From IMG/VR virus record IMGVR_UViG_3300042317_001497: 64,000 bases of DNA. One strand, given 5' to 3'. Below the pieces are notes generated by a model. That model did no database searches. It had not been told where the DNA came from and saw nothing but the letters and a program-made list of their open reading frames with translations. Position numbers and translations under genes: made by a program. Positions 1-63,877 of the stretch are shown in pieces (the first letter of the stretch is position 1; every line of letters starts with the position of its first letter). The DNA is from a virus.

Positions 1-1771
1 CATTAGGACCAGTACTTGTTTGTGTCATAACAATTGTGGTCAATTCATTTTTTAATTCTTCTATTTCCAACAAACACTCGCTTAAATTATCATAAATAGG
101 ATTCATTTCATCTTCTATAATATCTTTACCGTCTTTTTGCATTGTTAATCCTAAAGTTAAATTATCGAACCTAGGAAACAATAATACTTTATCTTCTAAG
201 TCTTTTCTTAAACCGTGATTAGCTTGTGCTGTCCAGTCTGCTTTAGCAAATTGTACTAGTTCTATAATGTGTAATCCTGGTTGAGAATCTGTATCTTTAG
301 TGGATGAGTCTTCTATAACTGGCCATATTAAATGCTCACCATCTTCGAGCTTGGCCGGGTCGTGTAGAGCCTCCTCTATTGCGACACCTCCTCCTTGAGC
401 ATCTATGCCTAGTCTGGCACAAGGAAAAGTTTTCATAAGATTACGAATTTTACGACAGCAAAATCCATAAAAATCATGGTCTTGTGCCAATCCTTTTTTA
501 AGTCTTTCTTTAAAATTATTTCTATTTGTTGTCCAGCAGTATACTAATCTATTATGATTTGGGTGAACTTCTATAATAGTAATACTAAAATTGTCCTGTT
601 CTGAGGCAGGGTCTACTCCGTATACATACGAGCAATTAGTATTTCCTTTAGTCGAAGCTTCAAAAAGAATGGTTTTATTATCTATCAGAATAGGATTAGT
701 ATCCGAAACAACACAGCTTTCTATCAAGCTTCGTCTAAAAAATCCCTCACTATCAGAAATAAAACAAGCAGCATACTCCATATTATATATTCCAGTATGT
801 ATAGTAGCTTTAGCTCTAGATACTTGTTTGTCATCCATGAATCCTTTTGGTATTAATTCATAAGGAACACGAATGATAGAATAGTCTTTCCAATTAAAAT
901 TATCCGGAATTTCTCCTTTAAAAATATCTTTTAGTTTCTGCTCGTCTCCTTTACTTTCTATAATACCTTTGTATCTTTTCCAATAATTGGCAAAGTGTTT
1001 AAAAGAGTAATCAGCTGTGCCAGAAATAATAGCCTGATTGCTCATTTTAATATTTAAAGATTCTAATTCATCATTCCATATTCCGGCATCTATCATCGCT
1101 TGTTTTTTTGCCTGATCTTTAACATTCTGAATAGGACTAGCAGATACAGCAGCGAATCCGGATACTACTGTTTCATAAATATCCGGACTAATAGAAGCAA
1201 ACTCATCAGCAATAATAATGTGCGCTCTTAATCCTCTAATTTTTGATCCATCTCCCAAAGGAATAGCAATCGTCCAACTATCTCCGAGTCTTATAGTACA
1301 TCTATCAACATCTCTTCGAGGTCCATCATCATTGCTATTAAAAATACTCCGTAAAATAGGGCTATTTCTCCATATTGTTTCCATATATTCAAATATAATT
1401 TTACTCTGTCTAAAAGCTGCACCAACTACTACTATTTTTGTACCGGGTACGAAAGTGCATTTAAGAACACAATATAAAGCCATCAGGAAAGACTTACCAA
1501 AACCACGGCTAGCTACGAACATAGGAAAAGATCTATGCCAAAACTCTTGCAATATTGCTATCTGGATAGGATGTAATTCTATATCGAAAAGAAGCTTAAC
1601 TGTACTTCCTATGTATTTTGTATTTCTCATAATCTTTAATAGATGAACATCAGGGTATGCTATATCCTGTTCAGATCTATTAATCATTAGATTATTAGGT
1701 ATTGCTAATGAATTAAGGTCTCCAAGACCTAGCCAAGCATTATCAAATATCTTTTTTTGTAAATCGCTCAA
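1..1771 (-). CDS. terL: Terminase large subunit (3' end runs off the window)
   Basis: Manual translation from TTG at 1771 is open to position 2: Walker A ASRGFGKS, motif IRGLRAHIIIADEF (Walker B), nuclease-domain YGVDPA and GIDAQGGG. Missing from the ORF track because it has no stop inside the window. Confidence 0.92.
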   Translation of the reverse strand, partial: MSDLQKKIFDNAWLGLGDLNSLAIPNNLMINRSEQDIAYPDVHLLKIMRNTKYIGSTVKLLFDIELHPIQIAILQEFWHRSFPMFVASRGFGKSFLMALYCVLKCTFVPGTKIVVVGAAFRQSKIIFEYMETIWRNSPILRSIFNSNDDGPRRDVDRCTIRLGDSWTIAIPLGDGSKIRGLRAHIIIADEFASISPDIYETVVSGFAAVSASPIQNVKDQAKKQAMIDAGIWNDELESLNIKMSNQAIISGTADYSFKHFANYWKRYKGIIESKGDEQKLKDIFKGEIPDNFNWKDYSIIRVPYELIPKGFMDDKQVSRAKATIHTGIYNMEYAACFISDSEGFFRRSLIESCVVSDTNPILIDNKTILFEASTKGNTNCSYVYGVDPASEQDNFSITIIEVHPNHNRLVYCWTTNRNNFKERLKKGLAQDHDFYGFCCRKIRNLMKTFPCARLGIDAQGGGVAIEEALHDPAKLEDGEHLIWPVIEDSSTKDTDSQPGLHIIELVQFAKADWTAQANHGLRKDLEDKVLLFPRFDNLTLGLTMQKDGKDIIEDEMNPIYDNLSECLLEIEELKNELTTIVMTQTSTGPN

Positions 1772-4053: not shown

Positions 4054-4876
4054 TATTTTCCTCTAATACAGACTCTGGAGTTAAAAATGGCTTATCTATT
4101 ATATTATCTTCATAGGTATGGTATTCTTGTAGTTTGCTTTTACTTTTTTCAGTAGCTAATGACAAAATCTCCATTTCTCGTCCTTCTTTTTCTCTGATAG
4201 TTTCGTCTTCTAACATTCGTATTAAGCCTGTCCAGCTACTTTTCCCGTCCTCTATTCTTTTGATTCTTTGCTCTCTGGTAGCTTTTAAATCTTTACTAAT
4301 CTTCTGCTGCTCATTTAATAGTTTAGTATATTCATTAGTATAGTTAGCAATACTATTTCGTGCAAAACTTAATTGAGTTTCCATATTAGCAAGTTTGGGA
4401 ATGTCTCTGTCAGTTTCTACTTTTTCATATTCTTTGTCTACTAGTTTTTGTAATTTATCAGTTTCAGCAATATGTCTTTTTCTTTCTTTCATACTTCGAT
4501 TAATAAGAATATCTATAGTGATAAACTGTTTAATCTGAAGCTCTTCTGCTGGTAAAACGTCTTCACGAAACTGTTTAATAAGTCCAATCCAGGTATCTTC
4601 AAAATACGCTCTTTCTCCGTTATCATCATCAAACTGTCTGGTTATTTCGGGCCAAAATGTTTTGCTGTGTAATTTTTGTTTTAAAAATTCTTGGGTGCTT
4701 TTATCACTATCTGATATTAATAGTTTATTTTCTGTAATATATCTTTGAACAGGGGCGGTACTTCTATTTAGTGATGAAGCTATTTGTTCTACTGATAGCG
4801 AACCAAAATTTTCCCTTATATATTGTTCTTCATCTAAGCTTAATTGTCCTCTTTTTTTGGGGGCTGAATTTCCCAT
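4046..4876 (-). CDS. Hypothetical protein, N-terminal HTH-like region plus coiled coil (possible small terminase or DNA-binding protein)
   Basis: LSVEQIASSLNRSTAPVQRYI is HTH-like; long heptad-rich segment; lies upstream of terL. Function is inference. Confidence 0.5.
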   Translation of the reverse strand: MGNSAPKKRGQLSLDEEQYIRENFGSLSVEQIASSLNRSTAPVQRYITENKLLISDSDKSTQEFLKQKLHSKTFWPEITRQFDDDNGERAYFEDTWIGLIKQFREDVLPAEELQIKQFITIDILINRSMKERKRHIAETDKLQKLVDKEYEKVETDRDIPKLANMETQLSFARNSIANYTNEYTKLLNEQQKISKDLKATREQRIKRIEDGKSSWTGLIRMLEDETIREKEGREMEILSLATEKSKSKLQEYHTYEDNIIDKPFLTPESVLEENNE

Positions 4877-5502
4877 TTTTTATTCTCCATTAATTGCGCA
4901 ATATGTTTTTGTAGTTTTATTAGTTGTTGTTTTGGAATATTGGAGCCGTGTTTTAATTTTAAATATGACTCTCTAAATTCTGACTGAATATTTTCATCTA
5001 AAAAAGATATAATTTCTTTATTCTGAATAAAATTGGTAGAATCAGATATTTGTAAATTAGGAATGGATAAATCTTGATCAATATGGGACGGTTGCATAAT
5101 GTTCTTTTTAGCTTCGTTTCTATTGGCCCATGCTGCATAAGGGGCACAATCATCTTTGTTTAAATATTTTGAACATTGATTGGTAGAACAAGCATAATTT
5201 TTATCAAATAGTGGACATGTTATGCAAGGTTTGTCGGGCCTTTGATAGTTATTTCTTTTGAAATTAAATAGTCTATTTCTCACATGGGTCCATAAAAAGT
5301 TTTCCAAGGGGCGACTACGATCATATTTTTGCAAACCTTCCATAGCAAATATGGCGGCTTGTTGTTTCATATCATCAAAATCATGGTATCCGAAACGAAA
5401 TTTATAACCCAATCTTTTGCTAATATTATCCAATACTATTAAAAATTCATCTTCAGTAACACCATTTGGTAAAATATCTTTATTCTTTTTCTTCTTGCTC
5501 AT
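4840..5502 (-). CDS. RNA polymerase sigma-70-like factor (region 2) with a Cys-rich insertion
   Basis: DFDDMKQQAAIFAMEGLQKYDRSRPLENFLWTHVRNRLFNFKR resembles sigma region 2; followed by CITC...C...C...C. Confidence 0.75.
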   Translation of the reverse strand: MSKKKKNKDILPNGVTEDEFLIVLDNISKRLGYKFRFGYHDFDDMKQQAAIFAMEGLQKYDRSRPLENFLWTHVRNRLFNFKRNNYQRPDKPCITCPLFDKNYACSTNQCSKYLNKDDCAPYAAWANRNEAKKNIMQPSHIDQDLSIPNLQISDSTNFIQNKEIISFLDENIQSEFRESYLKLKHGSNIPKQQLIKLQKHIAQLMENKKWEIQPPKKEDN

Positions 5503-6393: not shown

Positions 6394-7605
6394 ATGAAAC
6401 AACACGTTTTATCCTTAGAGAACCTAGAATCTAGAACTGTTTTGTCTAGTGTGGTAGCAATCGTTGATAGTGGTGCAGATATTAGTCATCCTTATCTGTC
6501 TGATAGATTGTGGACCAATCCTGGAGAGATTGCTGGCGATAATGTTGATAATGATAATAATGGATATGTTGATGATATTCATGGGTGGAATTTTGTAGAT
6601 AATAATAATAATGTGAGTGATGGGTATGGTCATGGTACAGCTGTAGCAGGATTAATTGTTTCAAATAATACTAGTAGTATCATGGTGTTGAGATTTCAAA
6701 ATAATCAGGGACTGGGATTTACTGGAGAAGCTATAAAAGCTATAGAATATGCGACATTAATGAAAAAAGAATATGGAGTTAATGTGAGTGCTATTAATGC
6801 TAGTTGGGGTGGGGGATTAGGATATTCTAGTTTATTGTATGCTGCTATCAATAATGCTGGAATTAATGATATAGCTTTTGTGGTTGCTGCTGGTAATAGT
6901 GGCTCTGATACTGATGCTGTTCCACGATATCCTGGATCTTATGATAGCTCTAATATTATTAATGTTGCGGCGGTGACTGATCAGAATTATTTGACCTCAT
7001 ATTCTAATTATGGAAAAAAGAGTGTAGATTTGGGGGCTCCTGCTAATGGGGTAAATACTACTTTTCCTAATAATACTTATAGATATTTTGCTGGTACTAG
7101 TGCTGCTGCTCCTAGAGTATCTAGTGCTGTGGGATATTTAAAATCTCAGAATCCTTCATGGAATATTGATGAAGTTAAAAGTTATATATTTAGTACTGTA
7201 GAAAAAAATAATAGTTTAGCAGATAGGTCGGTAAGTGGTGGGGTCTTGAATAAGAGTCTGGTTTTTAATGTTTCACAACCCATAAAGACTCCGGTTTCTA
7301 TTAGTATGCCGGTGATTAGTACTCCTATAGGAAATGTGGAAATTTTATCCTTAAAAAGAATTAAGGGATGGGCTTTTAGTGAAAATAGGGGAAACAAGTC
7401 TGTGGTGGTTAGTGTGGTTATAAATGATGTGGTGGTAAAAAGTGGTACTGCTAATGGTTATAGGGGGGATTTGAGAAAAGTTTTAGGTTCTAGTTACCAT
7501 GGATTTAATATGAAGCTAGCTCCTAGGTGGTTTAAGAGCGGGGAGAATAGTGTTAGGGTGGTTGTGGACGGTAACTCTATATGGAGTGGTAAAGTTTATA
7601 AATAG
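6394..7605 (+). CDS. Subtilisin-like S8 serine protease with planctomycete-type N-terminal export motif
   Basis: Triad AIVDSG / HGTAVAG / GTSAAAP, oxyanion AAGNSG; N-terminal LENLESRTVLS. Confidence 0.93.
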   Translation: MKQHVLSLENLESRTVLSSVVAIVDSGADISHPYLSDRLWTNPGEIAGDNVDNDNNGYVDDIHGWNFVDNNNNVSDGYGHGTAVAGLIVSNNTSSIMVLRFQNNQGLGFTGEAIKAIEYATLMKKEYGVNVSAINASWGGGLGYSSLLYAAINNAGINDIAFVVAAGNSGSDTDAVPRYPGSYDSSNIINVAAVTDQNYLTSYSNYGKKSVDLGAPANGVNTTFPNNTYRYFAGTSAAAPRVSSAVGYLKSQNPSWNIDEVKSYIFSTVEKNNSLADRSVSGGVLNKSLVFNVSQPIKTPVSISMPVISTPIGNVEILSLKRIKGWAFSENRGNKSVVVSVVINDVVVKSGTANGYRGDLRKVLGSSYHGFNMKLAPRWFKSGENSVRVVVDGNSIWSGKVYK

Positions 7606-7798: not shown

Positions 7799-7947
7799 AT
7801 GATTTTTGACGCAAAGACCGTGCTGCAAAAATTTTTCTCATTTGGCATGAAATTATATTCGAAAAATTGCAAAGATTTCTCTTGAAAGCGTCGATAAATA
7901 CTGTATAATTAAAGCACAAAGAGAACGATAACGCAAAGGACAAGAAA

Positions 7948-8377
7948 ATGAACAACAACGAAATCAAGCTGGGAGATGTGGTGGTGTGGAACTTTGTGTT
8001 TGACGTTCCGGAAGAGGATGGTGTTGTTGTAGGGTTGGACGGGGATAAAGTTCAAGTTGAGTATGTTGGATACATAATTGGTGGTGGTTCTAAGGTATGT
8101 CGGGAATGGCTGAACGTTGACGAAATCATGCTGGAATCGGAATACAATTCGCAGGTTTTCTAAGGTATTGACAAACACTTAGCCGATAAACTATAATAGA
8201 ATCAACACAAGAGAAAAAGGAAAAGAAATGACCATTCAAGTACAACACACCATTCGCCGCCTAGTTGCACATCATGGATATTCCGCAACATTTGTTCAGC
8301 ATATGGGCGAAGGCATTAGCCTCTATAGCATTGGTGGAATTATGTATCGTATTCGTGGCGATGGTACGATTCTCTAA
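7948..8377 (+). CDS. Two small hypothetical ORFs (7948-8163, 8228-8377)
   Basis: Each follows a TTGAAA/TTGACA...TATAAT promoter and a purine-rich leader; the second (49 aa) was translated manually. Confidence 0.65.
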
Positions 8378-8384
8378 AACTTGA

Positions 8385-8466
8385 CGTAAACTCTTACTGC
8401 TAAACGACTTACGACGAACGCGGCCGCAAAAATTTGCTGTAAGTACTTACCATATATAGACTTAGG
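8385..8466. repeat. 82 bp element, copy 2
   Basis: cgtaaactctt-actgcta-aacgacttacg / 24 nt / tgtaagtactt-accatat-atagacttagg. Confidence 0.9.
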
Positions 8467-8608
8467 GCTAATATAATGTTTAAGAGAAAATATTCTTTTG
8501 TTTTGGCATGAAATTATATTTGAAAAATTCCAAAAATTTCGCTTGCAACCTAAAGAATACTCTGTATAATGTCGATATAAGAGAAAAGGGAACGATAAAG
8601 AAAAGGGA

Positions 8609-9492
8609 ATGAAAATGATCACGCTGAACACTGTTGCTGAACTGACCAACTTCCTGAACAACAACGATATGCCCTCTCTGGTTGGAGAGGTTGTTTTCGC
8701 TGGTGATCTTCTCAGCCATGTTCGATCTCTCAACAATGCCATCAGTATCGACGAGGAAATCGGGTTTTGCGATGATGGTGGGGAGATTGTGATTGACGAT
8801 AACGGTAACGTTGTGAGCGATATGTATCTTCCGTAAGGGTATTGACAAGCAAAAATTGATAGGTATAATAGGAAGAAAGAAAGAGAGAAAGAAAATGCAG
8901 TTTGCTCTTGGTGATAAGGTGAAGGTTGACGGTAGGCTTGGACAGATCATTCTCTGGCATTTCGATGAGGGGAATATCTGGCACGTTGAGATTGACGGGG
9001 ATGAGTATGAGTGCTACGATGAGGATATGGAATTGATTTCCTAAAGAGGTAATAAGAATGTTTCTCACGTTTGACGATTTTTTGTTGTTGGGTGGTTTGC
9101 TCAGTTTTTGTGCTTTTATCACCTATACTGTGCATGAGGTGGGTAACGCTATCCGTTCTATGCTGGACATGGACAACTAAGCAAAGGAAAAGAAGATGAA
9201 TCACTGTGAAGCTGTTAAGATGGTGAAGGGAAAGGGTAATAAGAATACCCGTAAGGTGGGCAACAATACCTATGCGGAAATTCTTCCTGATGGTAGCGTG
9301 GGCATTATGCTACATAGTACCTATGTTGTTAAAATTCATCCCGACAATAGTGCTACCCTCAATACTGGGGGATGGTATACTAGCACCACGAAGGATCGAA
9401 TCAACAAGTATTCGCCCGTGCGTGTGTATCAAAAAAGGGGTGAATGGTATCTGAACAACGGTACACCATATGAGGATGGTATGGTGGTGTGA
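8609..9492 (+). CDS. Small hypothetical ORFs (8609-8836, 8895-9044, 9196-9492)
   Basis: ORF track plus purine-rich leaders; 9196-9492 carries GGWYTSTTKDRIN, a motif typical of a conserved phage family. Confidence 0.65.
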
Positions 9493-9522
9493 ACATCTGT
9501 ACGCTACTATACAAAAAATAGA

Positions 9523-9604
9523 CGTAAAGCCTTGACCCTAAACGACTTAGGGCGAGGCGGGCCGGCCCGGCTCGACGTAAGTACTTATGCCACAAGGGTT
9601 TATG
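9523..9604. repeat. 82 bp element, copy 3
   Basis: cgtaaagcctt-gacccta-aacgacttagg / 24 nt / cgtaagtactt-atgccac-aagggtttatg. Confidence 0.9.
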
Positions 9605-9734
9605 GCAAGTTTTGACGCAAGTGCTGTGCCACAAAATATTTTCTCATTTGGCATGAAATTATATTTGAAATTTCTCAAGATTTTGCTTGAAAGCGTCGAA
9701 TATATCTGTATAATGAAAGCACAGGAGAAAAACG

Positions 9735-9908
9735 ATGGAAAAGATGATTGACGAAAACGGCGAAGAATGGGTCGTGGGTTATGGAGAGGATGACGTTATG
9801 GATTTCGACGATTATTCGTGGGATCCGATCATGGGTGATGCCGATGAGCACATCGAAACGGACGATGAGTGGCTGGACGATTTTCAGGGTGAAGAAGAAT
9901 TTGCTTGA
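9735..9908 (+). CDS. Very acidic microprotein (57 aa)
   Basis: Manual: MEKMIDENGEEWVVGYGEDDVMDFDDYSWDPIMGDADEHIETDDEWLDDFQGEEEFA*; AGGAG RBS. Confidence 0.65.
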   Translation: MEKMIDENGEEWVVGYGEDDVMDFDDYSWDPIMGDADEHIETDDEWLDDFQGEEEFA

Positions 9909-10157
9909 AAGGAAAATGGTATGCTAGGGGCTATCCTGTTCGTGCTTTCATACATTGGACTTTTTTACGTTTGCGTGACTTGCAAGGAATAAAAAGGTAT
10001 AAGAATGAAAAACTGGATCTGCTACAATTTGTTTGGTGAGCATCCCGATGATGTGGACGCTTTCGGAATGATTAGTGGCTTGGGTATTCAAGCGTTTCTA
10101 ATCGGTTGGGCCGTCTATCTTTTTGTTTACGTTCCCTTCTTTTACTTTGGATGAAAA

Positions 10158-10334
10158 ATGAATATCTCTCAACTAAGCAAATGTACAGTACAAACCGCTT
10201 TAAGGATTGAGCAAATTCGTTTGCAATATGCTTTGAGCGAATCGGATAAAGAAAATATTAAAAATAGTATTAAGGAATTGTGTGCTGAACTACTGTATAG
10301 GTGGAAAAACGAGTTGCAAAACCTTAGCCCATAA
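10158..10334 (+). CDS. Hypothetical protein (58 aa); stop codon lies inside element copy 4
   Basis: Manual translation MNISQLSK...ELQNLSP*. Confidence 0.55.
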   Translation: MNISQLSKCTVQTALRIEQIRLQYALSESDKENIKNSIKELCAELLYRWKNELQNLSP

Positions 10335-10396
10335 GGAGTTACGACAAATTTTCGCCGCAAAATTTTCCCTAAGTACTTATGTACCAATAACTTACG
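10315..10396. repeat. 82 bp element, copy 4
   Basis: tgcaaaacctt-agcccat-aaggagttacg / 24 nt / cctaagtactt-atgtacc-aataacttacg. Confidence 0.9.
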
Positions 10397-10559
10397 ATAA
10401 GTTTTGACGCATATCGTATGCCAAAGCAAAATATTCTTTTTTGGCACGATATTCGCTGTGAGAAACCTTACGACATTGTAAGGAAACTACCAAAGATTTC
10501 GCTTGAAACCCAAAGAAAACTCTGTATAATGTCGGTATAAGAAGAAAGAGAGAAAGAAA

Positions 10560-10889
10560 ATGAAAACCAAGTTCCCTATCGTCGAAAACGCCAAGCGTCA
10601 AGCCAGACTGTGCTTCCTCGGGATTGCGATTCCTCACCAACCGTCCCTTGCGGATGGGGTGTATGGCCCGATCCGTAGTGAGAAGGTGCTGAAGTTCAAT
10701 CGCAAAGCCCTAAAGAATCTGGGCAAGATTCGCAAGGAAAAGGCTGATCCCCGCCTTGTTGGGGGTGAGGATCGCATGATTGTAAAGGTTGGCAAGCCGG
10801 GTTCGGCCGAAAGGGTTGCTGCTCTGGAGTCGCAATATGCCGCGATTCTTGCTTGTGGAGAGGAAGTATCCCCCTTTTCGGAGGGGTGA
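10560..10889 (+). CDS. Hypothetical basic protein
   Basis: ORF track; promoter and purine-rich leader upstream. Confidence 0.7.
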   Translation: MKTKFPIVENAKRQARLCFLGIAIPHQPSLADGVYGPIRSEKVLKFNRKALKNLGKIRKEKADPRLVGGEDRMIVKVGKPGSAERVAALESQYAAILACGEEVSPFSEG

Positions 10890-10917
10890 TCTTCTGTACA
10901 CTGTACAAAAAACTCGA

Positions 10918-10999
10918 CGTAAAGCCTTGCAGCATAAGGACTTACGGCGAATTTTTGCGGCCGAGCTTGACGTAAGTACTTATATACCAACGACTTACG
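10918..10999. repeat. 82 bp element, copy 5
   Basis: cgtaaagcctt-gcagcat-aaggacttacg / 24 nt / cgtaagtactt-atatacc-aacgacttacg. Confidence 0.92.
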
Positions 11000-11173
11000 T
11001 TCAATGCTTATATATTAGGCGTTTCTGCCTATATTCTGATCACTAGCAAATCCTGTGCCAAACTTGCTTCTCCAACCTTACAGCATTGTAAGGAAACTTT
11101 TTCTGATCTAGGCTATTGACATTGGACGATAATACTGGTATAATGATAGCACAAGAAAGAAAGAGAGAGAAAG

Positions 11174-11851
11174 ATGAATAGCAATATGATTGCAAAAGAG
11201 TTGAAGAAGTTGGGCTATACGCTGAAGAAGACTTCGGACATCGAAGCCCGTTGGATGGTCAGTTCTGACGTTCTCACCTACCATTGGGATTTCAAGGATT
11301 TGAAGGGTGTTCAGCGGTTCATGACCGATGAGCGAGCGTTGTATCGATATGCCAAAGCGAACGGTGCGACCACCCGATAGTGGGGGTTGACGATCAGAAA
11401 AAACTTCGCTAGAATACCAACACAAGAAAGAGAGAACAGAATGATTCAGATTGGTGATAGGGTTCAGGTTGGTTCAAGGATTGGTGTTGATCTGGCGTGG
11501 GCTGTGGTGGTGAACATCCTGCCAGCAATCGGGGACAGGGTAGCTATGTATTGTGTTCGGTTCGATGCCACTACCTCGAAACTGAATGAGTGCTGGGTGG
11601 ATGAGGGTATTGTGTATGGTCCGTTTCTTGATCAAAACTTTGGATGGAATTGAAAGGCTATACAAATGTTCTCACCGATGGAAAAAATTTGGATGAGCCT
11701 TGGCTTGCAAGGTGCTTTGGAAATGATGGACGCATCATGTTCTCTGGCCGAAAGGCTCACGGAAGAATGCGTGACTAATCCGGCAGTGAAAGATGCTCTA
11801 ATTCGAAGCATTGCTGCTGAAATTATAGGCAGTCGCCAAAGTATCTCCTAA
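11174..11851 (+). CDS. Small hypothetical ORFs (11174-11380, 11441-11653, 11666-11851)
   Basis: ORF track; the last stop codon lies in the left arm of element copy 6. Confidence 0.6.
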
Positions 11852-11928
11852 GTGCTTGCTATATAAAGACTTACGACAAACGGGGCGCGCCGGGCTTGAT
11901 GTAAGTACTTACCCCATAAGACTTTACG
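11847..11928. repeat. 82 bp element, copy 6
   Basis: cctaagtgctt-gctatat-aaagacttacg / 24 nt / tgtaagtactt-accccat-aagactttacg. Confidence 0.9.
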
Positions 11929-12084
11929 ACAACTTAGCAAATGGTGTGCCAAACCTCCACGAAATTACGAAAAGTTTTGTCAAAATCTTTTGACAATAAA
12001 ATTTCTGGATTTCTCTTGAAAGCTCAAGATGAGCATGGTATAATGTCGATATAAGAAGAAAGAAGAAAAGAAAGAGAGAAAAAA

Positions 12085-12246
12085 ATGGAATATCTGGATT
12101 ACGATCTGATGTCCGATTGCTGCGGTTCTGGTGTGGGCTTTCAAACCGGTGAGGGTGAGGACCGAATCGGAATTTGTATGGAGTGTCAAGACTGGTGTGG
12201 TGTGGTGGAAGATATTCCGGAAGATGAGGCCGCTAGTCTCAGCTAA
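12085..12246 (+). CDS. Acidic Cys-rich microprotein (53 aa)
   Basis: Manual: MEYLDYDLMSDCCGSG...GICMECQDWCGVVEDIPEDEAASLS*. Confidence 0.6.
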   Translation: MEYLDYDLMSDCCGSGVGFQTGEGEDRIGICMECQDWCGVVEDIPEDEAASLS

Positions 12247-12653
12247 TCCTGCGGATTTGGGCAAGCTGGGTATAGTCAGCAAGCTAGGGGAACCTTTCAA
12301 TATTGCAAGAAAATTTTCTAGTTGACAACTAAAGATTAGACTGTAGAATGTCGATATAAGAAGAAAGAGGAAAAAAGAAATGAAAACTTCACATCAAAAA
12401 GCTGTTGAAAGAATGGATCGGGAAACTAACCGTGCTATTAAACAGGTTAAGTTGTTGGAAAAACTCTATCTGGAAATGATGCAGAAGAAAGAGAAGGTTG
12501 GTAAATGACCACTATTATTATCATAAACGCTTGGATTTTTACCATCCTTGCTATGTATGCTTTTGCTAACGTGGCTTTCTGGTTGTTTGCTCAGGCTTTT
12601 GGTGTTGTTGATAATTATCTGCAAAATCAGTATTGGAAGAATAAGGAATAAAA

Positions 12654-12884
12654 ATGATTACTGTTGAACAAATTAGAGAATTGACCGATACTTACCTTGA
12701 GGGTTGTGAGGTTACTATTACCCGTTCGGGTTGTGGTTGGTCTACCCCTTGTGGTTGGCAAGTTTCTATTATTAGTGATATTCCCGGCGATCAGCATACA
12801 ATTTATTTGCGTGATGATAATACTGTGGATTCTGCTTGGTCTAAGATTACTACTCTTGCGGATAATGCTTTGAACCCCGCATAA
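12654..12884 (+). CDS. Hypothetical protein
   Basis: ORF track; AAGGA RBS. Confidence 0.6.
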   Translation: MITVEQIRELTDTYLEGCEVTITRSGCGWSTPCGWQVSIISDIPGDQHTIYLRDDNTVDSAWSKITTLADNALNPA

Positions 12885-13090
12885 TTAAAGAAAGGCGACA
12901 CGGATGGTCGATATTAACTGGGTGCAAATAGGTGTGGGATTTATTGCTGGCGTGTTGTGTTCTTGGTTTGTTTCTGATTTGGTTTTTTATGTAAGGAATA
13001 GTGAGGATAGCCATGATTAATTCGGATTCTATTATTCTGACCATTTCTTTTGTGGCTGGTTGCTTGGTTGCTTGGATTGTAAATTCTTAA

Positions 13091-13172
13091 CGCAAACCCT
13101 TGCCCTATAAAGACTTAGGGCAAACCGGGGCGGCCCCGCGAATCGTAACTCCTTTGATAGCATAGACTTACG
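13091..13172. repeat. 82 bp element, copy 7
   Basis: cgcaaaccctt-gccctat-aaagacttagg / 24 nt / cgtaactcctt-tgatagc-atagacttacg. Confidence 0.9.
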
Positions 13173-13320
13173 ACAAGCATTGACGCAAAAGCTGTGCCAC
13201 AAAAATATTTCCCGTTTGGCACAGAATTATATTTGAAAAATTCCAAAGATTTCGCTTGCATTGGCCGATAAACACTGTAGAATGACAGCATCACAAGGGA
13301 AACCACTAAGGGAAATACCA

Positions 13321-20507: not shown

Positions 20508-20554
20508 TCTTGACAAACTGGACTATGCCAGTATAAATAGATTTTAGGCATAGT

Positions 20555-20725
20555 GCGGCGGGATTCGTCCCGCGTAATGATGTGGGCTCAGACCCACCTA
20601 GCAGAGTCTAACCAACTAATAACCGGCGTGGTTGCCGGGAAGGGGTCTGCTGCTAGTAATATAACGATGGTAAAGTGATCCCACCATCAAACCGTATAGC
20701 CTCTATGGGACGCCATAGGGGCTTG
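20555..20725 (+). ncRNA. Small structured RNA candidate (five consecutive stems)
   Basis: Hairpins at 20558-20573, 20582-20597, 20598-20656 (nested 20623-20638), 20667-20690, 20699-20722; no ORF. Confidence 0.45.
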
Positions 20726-51078: not shown

Positions 51079-51431
51079 GGGGGCGTAACGGTATCGACTG
51101 GATATGGAAAATTATATTAGCAAGTAGTAGTTGATCTGGTGGCTACTTTAAAACCAGATTAAACGCTTAACTGGCGTAAATCAGTTAGCCCTTGCTGCTT
51201 AATTAAATAGCAGCAACAATCTTAGGAAGCGATAAAGGTAGCGTCCAAAAGATTGTCGTAAAATCCTTTGGCTCCTGTTAGTGGTGACGGTTAACAGGCT
51301 AAGATGTGTCACTAGGATTGATGAATGTTTTTTATTCTTTAGTCATATCCAAAATTTTATGAATAAAATAAACTTGTAGAAGATGTAATTAGAAATATCG
51401 CAGCAAATGGGTTCGACTCCCATCGCCTCCA
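51079..51431 (+). ncRNA. ssrA: tmRNA
   Basis: 5' GGGGGCGTAACGGTATCGAC; 3' GGGTTCGACTCCCATCGCCTCCA; G3-U70 alanine pair; tag frame 51173-51202 GVNQLALAA*. Confidence 0.93.
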
Positions 51432-51453
51432 CTGTTTAAGAAGAGAAAAAGCT

Positions 51454-60219: not shown

Positions 60220-62910
60220 ATGATGAAGTTGGCAGATAGGACGATTGAGACTCACAGCGTTGGTGTTACGAGCAAGAATCAGTTTAATATTGCTCAAACA
60301 AGCAAAATGTTTAAAATCCTTTCAGATTCTCTTTATTCTGACAAGGTTATGGCTGCAATTCGTGAGCTTTCAACTAATGCTTATGATAGCCACATTTCTG
60401 CTGGTAATAAGAATCCTTTTAAGGTAACTCTGCCCACCGCTGCTAATCCAACTTTTATGGTTAGAGATTACGGTACTGGTCTTAGTCAGGATGATATGGA
60501 GGACTTGTATACAACCTATGGAGCGTCCAACAAGAATGATAGCAATGATTTTGTTGGTTGTCTTGGTCTAGGGTCTAAGAGTCCGTTTGCTTATACCAAG
60601 AGTTTTACGACCGCATCTTATTATAATGGTAAGAAATATACTTATATTGCGGCGATTGATGAGAGTGGTGTTCCTACCCTCAATCTTTTTAATACTTCTA
60701 ATACATCTGAGCCTAATGGTCTTGAGATTAGTTTTGCTGTTAAGCAGCATGACTTCCAAGAATTTACAGATAAGGCTAAGAGAATCTTCCATTATTTCCG
60801 TATGAAACCTATTATTGAGGGTGGTATTGGTGTTAATCTTCAAGACCACAAGTACAGTAATACTAACATCGTTATTAGTGGTGACGGGTGGAGAGTTTGC
60901 CGACTGAATAATGATACTCAATACTATCCTAATAGTTATCATCGTATTGATAGTGGTGTTGTAGCTATCATGGGTAATATTGCGTATCCTGTTCAGACCG
61001 CACAGATTGTGGGTCAAGAAAAGGAAGAGATGCCTGATCATATTCAGAAGTGGAATAGAGCTTTCCAGAAAGCAGATATTGATAGCTGGAAGAGTTTTGT
61101 TAGTGAGATTATCAACTCCGGTCTTTATCTTGAGTTGGATTTTAATATCGGTCAACTTGAGATGGACGTAAGCCGGGAAGGATTGCAGTATACTAAAGAT
61201 GTGATCAAGACCCTTCGTAAAAAGACTCAAGAAATTTATATTGAGATGAAGGAAGAATTCTCCAAGAAAATTCAAACTTCTAAAACTAAAGTAGAAGCCA
61301 TTACTTCATACTATACCATGAACGAACTGGCTGGAGGATGGGGAGTTGGTGCATCTTGGACCGATCCCAAGGGCAAAGATCATCCCATCAATTCTGGTAA
61401 CGATCTGGAATATAAAATTCCGGCTGGCAAGAGTCTGTATGTTTTTAATTACAAGACTGCTGGGTTTCGTTCTCGTCGCATGGTTGCTCTGACTGATAAG
61501 ATTCATCACGAAACTCTTACTGGTAAAGGTTATAGTTATTGGAATAACCAGAAAAAGAAAGGTCAGATGAGTTTCTTTGTGTGTGACGTTAAGGGTGAAG
61601 AGACTGCTAAGAAAATTATTACAAAATATTGTAATACAAATGATTGCTTTGCATACCTCTTGATTGATACTAAGGATCATACAAAAAGCGGAGAAGGTTT
61701 TGATCAACTGATTGAAGATGTTGGGGCTGAAAATCTACTCAAGGTTTCAGACTACAAACATCTGACGCAAAGTTCTGGACCAAGAAAGTCTTACAATAGA
61801 AATTCTAATGGTAGCGTTAGCGATCAAGACGTATTCTTTATTCATGGTTATGATAAGGATAGCAAGCAGATTACCAATCCTTACAACGACGCTACTTGTC
61901 TGAGAATTCTTTCAGAAGAACAACTGGAAGATTTTCTGGAACAAGATGAGATCGTCTATGTTCCTATGCTTCGCTATAAGACTGAACCTGCGTCTGGCTA
62001 TCCACAGATTAATGATATCTCTATTACTCTTAGAGATGAAACGCTCAAGAGTATAGTCAAGGACTTGGTTGGAGATAGTAAGGTTTATGCTATCAAAACA
62101 GCTTTTGCTAAAAAGCTTGAGAAAGACGGATACAATCTTGTTAACTTCAATGACTTTTTGAAGAGACAGCTTAAAGTTGTAGCAGAAAAACATTTTAAGA
62201 ATCTTGCTTCTATCAACAAGCTTGTTGAATATTGTAAGAAGGACTATGCAGAAGATGAGAAGTACACGGGAGGGGGTTATAGATATTATAACCATGGAAC
62301 AACAGATAAGCAGTTTATGTTTCATATTCTGAATATCTTTGGTCTAGATTATGATAGGTTTATTGGCAACAAGACTCTTGTAGATTGTTTGAACAAGACT
62401 ATGCTAACAGAGTTCTTTGCTAATACTGTTCATATGAGTCCTTTTAATATTAGTAAGTTTAAGCAAACAGAATATCTATCTCATATCTCTAAGCTTATGA
62501 AAGAAATTGGCATTGAAGATGTTGACGGTAAGGAGATTCGTAATGCTAATTTGGCCTACAATACCTTGACTCGCATGATCTCCAACTCTTTGTACTCTGG
62601 AGATAATAGTACAAAAGCAGAGGGTTATCTCAAGATTATTCGTGGGACTTCTACTCAAGATATTAAGACATGGAAGATCTCTGAGATTAGGGAAAAGATC
62701 AAAACTGAGGTAGATAAGAATCCTATGCTGAAACTTATTATGGGGAATCATCAAGTATCTGGTAATCTGACAGAACTAAAGCCTAGTCAGAATCCTATTC
62801 TTGAGGATCGTCACTCATACTATGGAAATTCTGCTAAGGATTGGATCCATCAGATGAGTCAGGAGAATATTGATCTGTTAAAGATTCAGTTGAGCAGTTT
62901 GATAAAGTAG
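60220..62910 (+). CDS. rIIA: rIIA-like protein (N-terminal GHKL/HATPase domain)
   Basis: KILSDSLYSDK, IRELSTNAYDSH, VRDYGTG, GCLGLGSKSPFAY; followed by an rIIB-like gene. Confidence 0.88.
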   Translation: MMKLADRTIETHSVGVTSKNQFNIAQTSKMFKILSDSLYSDKVMAAIRELSTNAYDSHISAGNKNPFKVTLPTAANPTFMVRDYGTGLSQDDMEDLYTTYGASNKNDSNDFVGCLGLGSKSPFAYTKSFTTASYYNGKKYTYIAAIDESGVPTLNLFNTSNTSEPNGLEISFAVKQHDFQEFTDKAKRIFHYFRMKPIIEGGIGVNLQDHKYSNTNIVISGDGWRVCRLNNDTQYYPNSYHRIDSGVVAIMGNIAYPVQTAQIVGQEKEEMPDHIQKWNRAFQKADIDSWKSFVSEIINSGLYLELDFNIGQLEMDVSREGLQYTKDVIKTLRKKTQEIYIEMKEEFSKKIQTSKTKVEAITSYYTMNELAGGWGVGASWTDPKGKDHPINSGNDLEYKIPAGKSLYVFNYKTAGFRSRRMVALTDKIHHETLTGKGYSYWNNQKKKGQMSFFVCDVKGEETAKKIITKYCNTNDCFAYLLIDTKDHTKSGEGFDQLIEDVGAENLLKVSDYKHLTQSSGPRKSYNRNSNGSVSDQDVFFIHGYDKDSKQITNPYNDATCLRILSEEQLEDFLEQDEIVYVPMLRYKTEPASGYPQINDISITLRDETLKSIVKDLVGDSKVYAIKTAFAKKLEKDGYNLVNFNDFLKRQLKVVAEKHFKNLASINKLVEYCKKDYAEDEKYTGGGYRYYNHGTTDKQFMFHILNIFGLDYDRFIGNKTLVDCLNKTMLTEFFANTVHMSPFNISKFKQTEYLSHISKLMKEIGIEDVDGKEIRNANLAYNTLTRMISNSLYSGDNSTKAEGYLKIIRGTSTQDIKTWKISEIREKIKTEVDKNPMLKLIMGNHQVSGNLTELKPSQNPILEDRHSYYGNSAKDWIHQMSQENIDLLKIQLSSLIK

Positions 62911-63004
62911 TCAGAAATTGTTCAAGACCCCTTGACAAGCTTGCCGATTAGTGTAAAATGACAGTATCACAGGTATCGAAACTTTAATTTTTAGGAGTTG
63001 GATT

Positions 63005-63877
63005 ATGGCTGTTCCGTTTATGTTTGTGGATGGTAATTTGACACTGGTTCTAAATAACCAGAGTTATCAGGTGTTGCCGGATCATATCAACTATAAGTTG
63101 ATTCTGGAAAAACTTCCCTCTGCTACAGCAGAGGAACTGTTGGAGGTTGTTGATGTTCAAAAAGCCGTTGCTACTTTTAGTGATGGTCTTGTGGAGATCA
63201 AGAATGGTCAGGTCACTTATGAAGGTGAGCCTGTTCATGGATCAATTAGCAAAAGAATTCTAGAGTTTATGAGCAAGGGACTACCGTTCCAACCGCTCGT
63301 TAATTTCCTGAATAATATTATGGAAAATCCCAGTATGCAGAGTCAAAAGGAACTTTATGATTTCCTTGAACATGAGCATCTGCCAATTACTGAGGATGGT
63401 CACTTTCTGGCTTATAAGGCAGTAAGGAGTGATTATAAGGATAAGTATCGTGGGGTTTTTGATAATCGCGTTGGTCAGATTTGCACTATGCAAAGAGCAA
63501 AGGTTGATGATAATCGTGCTAGGGGCTGTTCTGATGGGCTTCATGCTGGTGCATTGAACTACGTTGCTGGTTATGGCAGCCTAGAATCTGGTGATAGGAT
63601 TGTGATTGTTAAGATTAATCCGAAAGATGTTGTGAGTGTTCCAAGCGATTGCAACTGCGAAAAGCTTCGCACATGCCGATATGAAGTTGTTGGAGAATAT
63701 GAGGGTGAACTTCTAAAGCCCCTGTATTCTGCTGATTTTAGTCAGGATGACTATGAGGATGAGGACGAAGATTATACCAATGAAGAAGGGTATTGGGATC
63801 AGTTTGATGAGGATGAGGAAGAGGAAGAATATGAAGAAGATGATCTTGATGAGGATGATTGGAATAATCAGTACTAA
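63005..63877 (+). CDS. rIIB: rIIB-like protein with acidic tail
   Basis: LYDFLEHEHLPITEDGHFLAYKAV, CSDGLHAG, VKINPKDVVSVP, KLRTCRYEVV. Confidence 0.9.
   Translation: MAVPFMFVDGNLTLVLNNQSYQVLPDHINYKLILEKLPSATAEELLEVVDVQKAVATFSDGLVEIKNGQVTYEGEPVHGSISKRILEFMSKGLPFQPLVNFLNNIMENPSMQSQKELYDFLEHEHLPITEDGHFLAYKAVRSDYKDKYRGVFDNRVGQICTMQRAKVDDNRARGCSDGLHAGALNYVAGYGSLESGDRIVIVKINPKDVVSVPSDCNCEKLRTCRYEVVGEYEGELLKPLYSADFSQDDYEDEDEDYTNEEGYWDQFDEDEEEEEYEEDDLDEDDWNNQY

Follow-up and report, generated by a model that had tools for sequence, protein, structure and literature searches.

Why would a phage place bacterial promoter motifs in its early region so that they point away from its genes? This question is raised by the IMG/VR virus record IMGVR_UViG_3300042317_001497, of which a stretch of 64 kb was analysed (the window) and in which 15-bp boxes of the sigma-54 (RpoN) -24/-12 type lie between copies of a palindromic element and strong sigma-70-type early promoters. 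The original prediction, drawn from the letters of this stretch, had proposed that the element is transcribed from these boxes as an antisense double-hairpin RNA, that it serves as an enhancer for host sigma-54 promoters, or that RpoN is parked there as a roadblock. The explanation that we favour, with a confidence a little better than even, is that the boxes are selected, orientation-independent DNA docking sites for a predicted sequence-specific protein that would exert upstream control on immediate-early sigma-70 promoters.

Sigma-54-type boxes beside a palindromic element

The palindromic boundary element (~84 bp by nhmmer, 17 copies in the window) is composed of two CGTAAG..CTTACG units that flank a GC-rich core, and an early promoter comes after each copy. 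Between positions 7600 and 13400, the ten best matches to sigma-70-type promoters are all on the plus strand, ahead of small open reading frames (ORFs). Boxes are found at element copies 1-7 only, in the following arrangement (positions are those of the window; L002 is a related contig):

7717, 8383, 9522, 10314, 10917, 11847 and 13090: starts of element copies 1-7 (copy 3, 9522..9606)
7811..7827, minus: decayed box after element copy 1 (plus strand reads GCAAAGACCGTGCTGCA); its L002 orthologue (9653) is intact
7843, 8504 and 9649 (9649..9663), plus: partner TGGCATGAAATTATA, -12 broken (no GC); the 9649 copy lies 38-39 bp before the -35
9617..9631, minus: box TGGCACAGCACTTGC, after element copy 3
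10409..10423, minus: box TGGCATACGATATGC, after element copy 4
10442..10456, plus: partner TGGCACGATATTCGC, -12 is TCGC; divergent with the 10409 box, 33 bp start to start
10466..10483, plus: hairpin (dyad) CCTTACGACATTGTAAGG, 24 bp past the start of the plus box; second copy at 11076-11093
11046..11060, minus: box TGGCACAGGATTTGC, 45 nt past element copy 5, followed by a hairpin
11937..11951, minus: box TGGCACACCATTTGC, 7 nt past element copy 6
13185..13199, minus: box TGGCACAGCTTTTGC, after element copy 7
13217, plus: partner TGGCACAGAATTATA, broken -12
9687..9714, plus: sigma-70-type early promoter TTGAAA-N16-TATAAT
7882, 8543, 10503, 11116, 12016 and 13256: starts of equivalent early promoters

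The box pattern TGGCAY-N5-WTGC (TGGCAYNNNNNWTGC) matches the 64-kb window five times, always on the minus strand, against 0.27 matches expected, and 0 of 100 shuffles reached five; four of the five boxes carry the exact TGGCAC-N5-TTGC. The minus-strand boxes announced after copies 3-7 are thus borne out, and the sequence also reads as had been described for the degenerate box at 7811 after copy 1 and for the plus-strand boxes at 7843, 8504, 9649, 10442 and 13217 with their degenerate -12. All five matches face an element and have no ORF downstream, i.e. none is co-oriented with a gene that it could serve. Ten of the 17 element copies (copies 8-17) are without a box, which argues against the element being an enhancer dedicated to the boxes.

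The original prediction had further placed the boxes in a fixed 12-nt register to the element, such that transcription would start at the first base outside it. This register is real in window copies 1, 3, 4 and 7: the distance from the element end (nhmmer) to the start of the minus box is 11 nt in copies 3, 4 and 7, and likewise 11 nt in copy 1 when read from the element end at 7799 and the sequence. However, these four copies are alike in the linker AAGTTTTGACGCAA and in most of what lies downstream, and their fixed register is therefore attributable to common descent. Over 27 homologous cases the distance between element and box ranges from 7 to 60 nt, hence homologues do not preserve a +1 at the edge of the element.

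Related IMG/VR contigs were gathered via an adjacent S8 peptidase gene, and further ones via the element pattern. Their early regions contain 57 unique boxes in 11 loci, all within the first ~5 kb, and in five related records (26-140 kb) all matches cluster near the S8 peptidase gene, within a few kb of early region, while reversed-pattern controls in the same records gave 0-1 matches. The gap between TGGCAY and TTGC is five in 50 of 55 cases (11 loci), so that the conservation of the GG-N10-GC spacing in related phages, a check named beforehand, was passed. The matrix of the 57 unique sites has the consensus TT-TGGCA-C/T-R-nn-A-T-TTGC-T, which agrees with the extended sigma-54 consensus YTGGCACG-N4-TTGCW; the published consensus is TGGCAC-N5-7-TTGCT (PMC12316311). 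The box grammar TTTGGCAC-R-NN-ATTTGC-T is exactly that of sigma-54. When paralogous and orthologous cassettes are aligned, GCAA is invariant and GTGCCA is present in six of seven (it is decayed in window copy 1), whereas the N5 differs. Since the GG-GC spacing is rigid and the half-sites are fixed while the N5 varies, the motif is clearly under selection as a bipartite unit.

Layout of the boxes and competing explanations

The orientation of the boxes is mixed among the relatives, with mostly plus-strand boxes in contig L007, minus-strand boxes only in L003 and L005, and both orientations in many others. Divergent pairs occur at 32-33 or 22-23 bp, one helical turn apart, and convergent pairs at 19-20 bp, with their -12 ends 4-5 bp from each other; there are also triple sets (L048 7949/7971/7991; L042 8910/8932/8951). 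The two members of a convergent pair could not both be occupied by polymerase, or both fire, and with such overlapping footprints not all boxes can act as promoters. Relative to the -35 hexamer of the sigma-70 promoter, box starts lie 38-79 bp upstream, i.e. at about -73 to -114 from the predicted start, and the distances are discrete (38-40, 52-53, 61, 70 and 78-79 bp). Upstream control sites have such positions.

We propose that each 15-bp bipartite box would bind one protein; within the first five to seven early cassettes, the boxes lie with the palindromic element on one side and the strong sigma-70 early promoter on the other. They would then serve the immediate-early block as sites of upstream control or of parking, in either orientation, and would not be promoters of antisense hairpin RNAs. 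If the protein is sigma-54, RNA polymerase might be held in a silent closed complex that could act as a roadblock, as an insulator or by titration of a scarce sigma factor. The motif, its rigid spacing, its conservation, its restriction to one region and its paired layouts are observed, and what we infer is protein binding at the boxes together with the identity of the binder.

The antisense double-hairpin RNA is not supported: over 79 elements the two strands do not differ in folding (mean -23.8 versus -23.1 kcal/mol, p = 0.40), and for the predicted minus-strand transcripts folding is no better than for shuffled sequence (z = -0.03 to -1.6). The absence of a strand bias over the 79 elements likewise led us to reject any strand-specific element RNA, and a reading of the paired boxes as an RNA hairpin was discarded as their N5 spacers are without covariation. 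A sigma-70 reading of the type I boxes (an overlapping TTGACG-N17-AATATT) fits at 9 of 12 positions only and is absent from the other box contexts. Promoters for a phage sigma-70-family factor, promoters of the ECF type and a MotA-like box have unfit spacings (by inspection only). A repressor-operator array is not supported: no gene for a binder was identified and the boxes do not overlap the -35 hexamer. The element is no intrinsic terminator either, having no T-tract, and a terminator scan finds none at the elements.

Productive sigma-54 promoters, with minus-strand boxes giving short antisense RNAs into the element, plus-strand boxes giving early mRNAs with a 5' hairpin and a host enhancer-binding protein activating both, are in our estimate improbable. 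The perfect consensus match and the rigid spacing would suit such promoters, as would the dyad CCTTAC-N6-GTAAGG at +23-25 after plus boxes, near the expected +1, and a sigma-54-like promoter is on record, in the source cited below, for Pseudomonas phage YuA (PMC10914365). Yet the five window boxes point off the genes and into an ORF-less element, convergent pairs (19-20 bp) and triples would block each other, the distance to the element drifts between 7 and 60 nt, minus-strand RNAs fold like shuffled sequence with no strand bias among the elements, the box-bearing phage records searched hold no enhancer-binding protein, and the likely host group is usually without rpoN. We give even less credence to genome-handling sites, be they small-terminase (pac) sites, replication iterons or end-protection sites. 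These could account for the large-terminase gene that, in 94 of 202 other loci among the matches listed, lies no more than 3 kb from the boxes; many of those loci have tandem arrays with a ~47-bp period. The window terminase gene, by comparison, is 6-11 kb from the boxes. Against such sites, the window family has its boxes scattered over 5.5 kb, each early cassette having its own set, invariably a short way ahead of a sigma-70 promoter; the boxes of the 202 loci listed have no single family of small DNA-binding proteins in their company; and in genomes complete with terminal repeats the boxes are a single internal cluster away from the assembly ends.

It is very improbable, and already disfavoured, that the boxes have no function and are chance sigma-54-like sequence that arose in the decayed right half-unit of the element and spread by cassette duplication. 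The type I box does resemble the element half-unit (GACGCAAGTGCTGTGCCACAA versus GACGTAAGTACTTATGCCACAAGG), copies 1, 3, 4 and 7 have the whole linker and downstream region in common, and the box after copy 1 is decayed; but boxes turn up in both orientations and within surroundings of quite different sequence, their half-sites are fixed while the N5 varies, 50 of 55 have the exact spacing, and unrelated viral contigs bear the same pairs. A broader proposal, which we put forward only tentatively, is that boxes of sigma-54 grammar constitute a widespread undescribed phage module of silent docking sites that would capture or park sigma-54 polymerase and that, in the window family with its cyanobacterial affinities, would instead capture a protein copying sigma-54 specificity, possibly for example the stand-alone 202-amino-acid (aa) domain protein described below.

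The predicted binder and the host

To our knowledge, sigma-54 is the only binder with the specificity of the boxes. We divide the identity of the putative binder about equally between host sigma-54 RNA polymerase and some other host or phage protein that would read the same grammar; the latter is given about half, since a cyanobacterial host seems likely and rpoN is rare in cyanobacteria. A Pfam six-frame search of five related records, one of them 94% complete, found no sigma-54 gene, and tblastn with three sigma-54 or DNA-binding-domain proteins gave no match in the window and 62 viral loci. Similarly, no enhancer-binding protein (PF00158) was detected in the five related and 48 other box-bearing viral records. 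The lack of sigma-54 and enhancer-binding-protein genes in the phages fits silent docking better than firing. A gene for a sigma-70-family protein of ~220 aa (4840..5502, minus), not a sigma-54, was found in all five related records searched and adjoins the early region in all relatives; as a binder it was rejected by inspection, the promoter geometry expected of it being unlike the boxes.

Several points weigh against docking sites, or against sigma-54 as their occupant. The regular distances between boxes and -35 hexamers stem in part from common descent of the cassettes and not from constraint, and the phage genes yielded no candidate binder. The plus-strand boxes of relatives have the dyad CCTTAC-N6-GTAAGG 23-25 bp further on, near the expected sigma-54 transcript start, and this hairpin may mean that some boxes are real promoters. 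The host evidence is adverse too: ThyX of the phage is 70-73% identical to Synechococcus phage ThyX and every top match is from a cyanophage, thyX has 65-69% nucleotide identity to cyanobacteria with 1.6-1.9-Mb genomes, and ThyX has zero matches in 201 Pseudomonadota. A group I intron within the phage tRNA-Leu (57444-57629; RF00028, 55.3 bits) matches 25 of 301 Cyanobacteriota (70-77% identity) versus 1 of 201 Bacteroidota. ThyX and this intron, as sequence affinities, point to a cyanobacterial host, and such a host would almost certainly lack sigma-54: PF04552, the sigma-54 DNA-binding domain, scored above cut-off in 3 of 301 Cyanobacteriota genomes only, and the literature agrees that sigma-54 is rare in cyanobacteria (PMC12316311).

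The case for a cyanobacterial host is itself weakened by three findings. Neither psbA nor nblA was found in the related records, the transfer-messenger RNA (tmRNA) of the phage is unlike cyanobacterial tmRNA, and early promoters carry a motif resembling the sigma-28 -10 (YAAAG-N16/17-GYCGATAA). HIP1, looked for as a host sign, is absent; host typing by GDP-mannose dehydratase was abandoned, its identities being at most 50% and to many phyla. For the parked RpoN of the original prediction, this leaves a divided outcome: it is compatible with the data on the boxes, while it requires a host rpoN and the host evidence points to cyanobacteria, so that it survives only if the host has rpoN.

A 202-aa protein consisting of the sigma-54 DNA-binding domain alone (PF04552, 62 bits; with an RpoN-box-like RRTVTKY) is encoded at L147:4915-5523. 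The locus belongs to a chromosome contig of ~7 Mb in a genome of the phylum Cyanobacteriota, and the gene sits between phosphoribulokinase/SAM-synthetase genes and a transporter gene. The protein has neither a core-binding nor an activator-interacting region.

Other viruses and known systems

Pattern scans of IMG/VR for divergent and for convergent box pairs returned at least 120 loci each, and at least 202 combined. The paired boxes in these at least 202 loci number 2-14 per locus, at GC contents of 0.22-0.68, and ~16 of the loci listed belong to the family of the window phage. Many are tandem TGGCAY-N5-TTGC arrays in both orientations with a period of ~47 bp (for example, among loci L159-L360, L162:3441-3625, L225:4802-5000 and L236:418-911). 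The breadth across very different phages argues for a widely conserved binder. No psbA was found in 48 parent records searched from box-bearing viral loci. As box carriers among cultured phages with related terminases we rejected Microcystis phage Mvi-Yong1342-1 (complete genome; 2 matches, no enrichment) and Venkman, Rhodoferax P26218 and MW202481 (0-1 matches in terminase neighbourhoods of 9-13 kb).

The boxes resemble bacterial sigma-54 -24/-12 promoters in the bipartite motif, the flanking preferences and the rigid GG-N10-GC. They differ in that they point either way, overlap as inverted pairs or triples and lie upstream of sigma-70 promoters; moreover, no phage enhancer-binding protein was found here and the host may lack rpoN. 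The sigma-54 holoenzyme can sit on DNA as an inactive closed complex. Silent and intragenic sigma-54 binding sites are documented in E. coli (PMC4591121). That the use of sigma-54 by a phage would be unusual, as had been remarked, is correct: it is rare, and the published precedent in the source cited is limited to the virulent Pseudomonas phage YuA, which is reported to depend on host sigma-54 and sigma-70 (Ceyssens et al. 2008, cited in Putzeys et al. 2024, PMC10914365). The account given there is of one sigma-54 promoter region with a mapped start and includes no multi-copy, two-orientation layout, unlike in the window phage, and TGGCAY-N5-WTGC is absent from YuA (NC_010116). As far as could be found, the paired two-orientation layout is undescribed.

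The cassettes as a whole recall the PeSL cassettes of T4-type phages, in which, as described in the cited source, a repeated stem-loop and a strong early sigma-70 promoter flank small early ORFs in a plastic region (Arbiol et al. 2010, PMC2839356). All 17 elements show this arrangement, a dyad and then an early sigma-70 promoter, repeated between small ORFs. In contrast to PeSLs, the window element has no T-tract and forms a long double palindrome, with sigma-54-type boxes as an addition in the first seven cassettes. We know of no sigma-54-type boxes in PeSLs. MarA, SoxS and Rob are monomeric activators with two helix-turn-helix motifs, whose asymmetric marbox works in either orientation. By analogy, the phage boxes may be likened to the marbox, both being asymmetric and bipartite, with recognition elements one helical turn apart, and located upstream of sigma-70 promoters, whereas the box sequence differs and no MarA-like protein was identified in the phage.

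If sigma-54 holoenzyme docks at the boxes, this would be a phage strategy that we found in no paper and that would be common among uncultured phages; the phage would exploit the one bacterial sigma factor able to bind DNA without firing, as a parked complex, an insulator or a sink, in the first minutes of infection. If the host is without sigma-54, a new regulator would read the same 15-bp grammar, a warning against calling sigma-54 promoters from sequence only. Either way, the boxes split the early cassettes into those with (copies 1-7) and those without (copies 8-17), which suggests a division into immediate-early and delayed-early genes.

The window comes from a large uncultured phage with annotated genes for DNA ligase, UvdE and ThyX, a large terminase gene at 2-1771 (minus) and the rIIA and rIIB genes at 60220-63877. 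A nucleotide search with the box-bearing region gave no similarity to cultured phages, and the terminase has just 25% identity to those of cultured phages. The stretch at ~7.7-25.6 kb consists of very small plus-strand ORFs and has a GC content of 0.41-0.46, compared to 0.31-0.33 in the rest of the phage. Among its products is a 98-aa early protein (9196-9492) of the Kyano_Gp96 family (27.2 bits), whose relatives come from T7-like Pseudomonas and Burkholderia phages, where they belong to early regions, and from phiCbK-like Caulobacter phages, where they lie in the terminal repeats. We rejected this match as a cyanophage sign, for it is not cyanophage-specific, with BLAST relatives in Pseudomonas, Caulobacter and Burkholderia phages.

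At several early promoters the dyad CCTTAC-N6-GTAAGG is conserved at 27-40 bp ahead of the -35; it shares CTTAC/GTAAG words with the large palindromic element. Besides the two window copies (10466-10483 and 11076-11093), it is found in relatives at 11030, 12801 and 13814 (L002) and at 12837 and 14926 (L007). Most strong TTGACA-type promoters (window 7880-57000; e.g. 13264, 18967, 21027 and 54927) have G(C/T)CGATAA directly after the -35 hexamer. In 21 of 38 such motifs YAAAG lies 16-17 nt upstream, a likeness to the sigma-28 (FliA) consensus TAAA-N15-GCCGATAA; GCCGATAA occurs 14 times on the plus and twice on the minus strand of the window.

The window RNA genes comprise ten tRNAs and one tmRNA. 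The latter is a one-piece tmRNA (51079-51434) with the tag GVNQLALAA, and BLAST against Cyanobacteriota, Pseudomonadota and Bacteroidota samples returned short weak matches only, with no substantial similarity. GCGC is depleted in the whole window (6 observed versus 62 expected), as is CGCG (18 versus 62), which may reflect restriction avoidance. Finally, a Pistol ribozyme (20517-20579; RF02679, 55.7 bits) is located directly upstream of the first tRNA pair.

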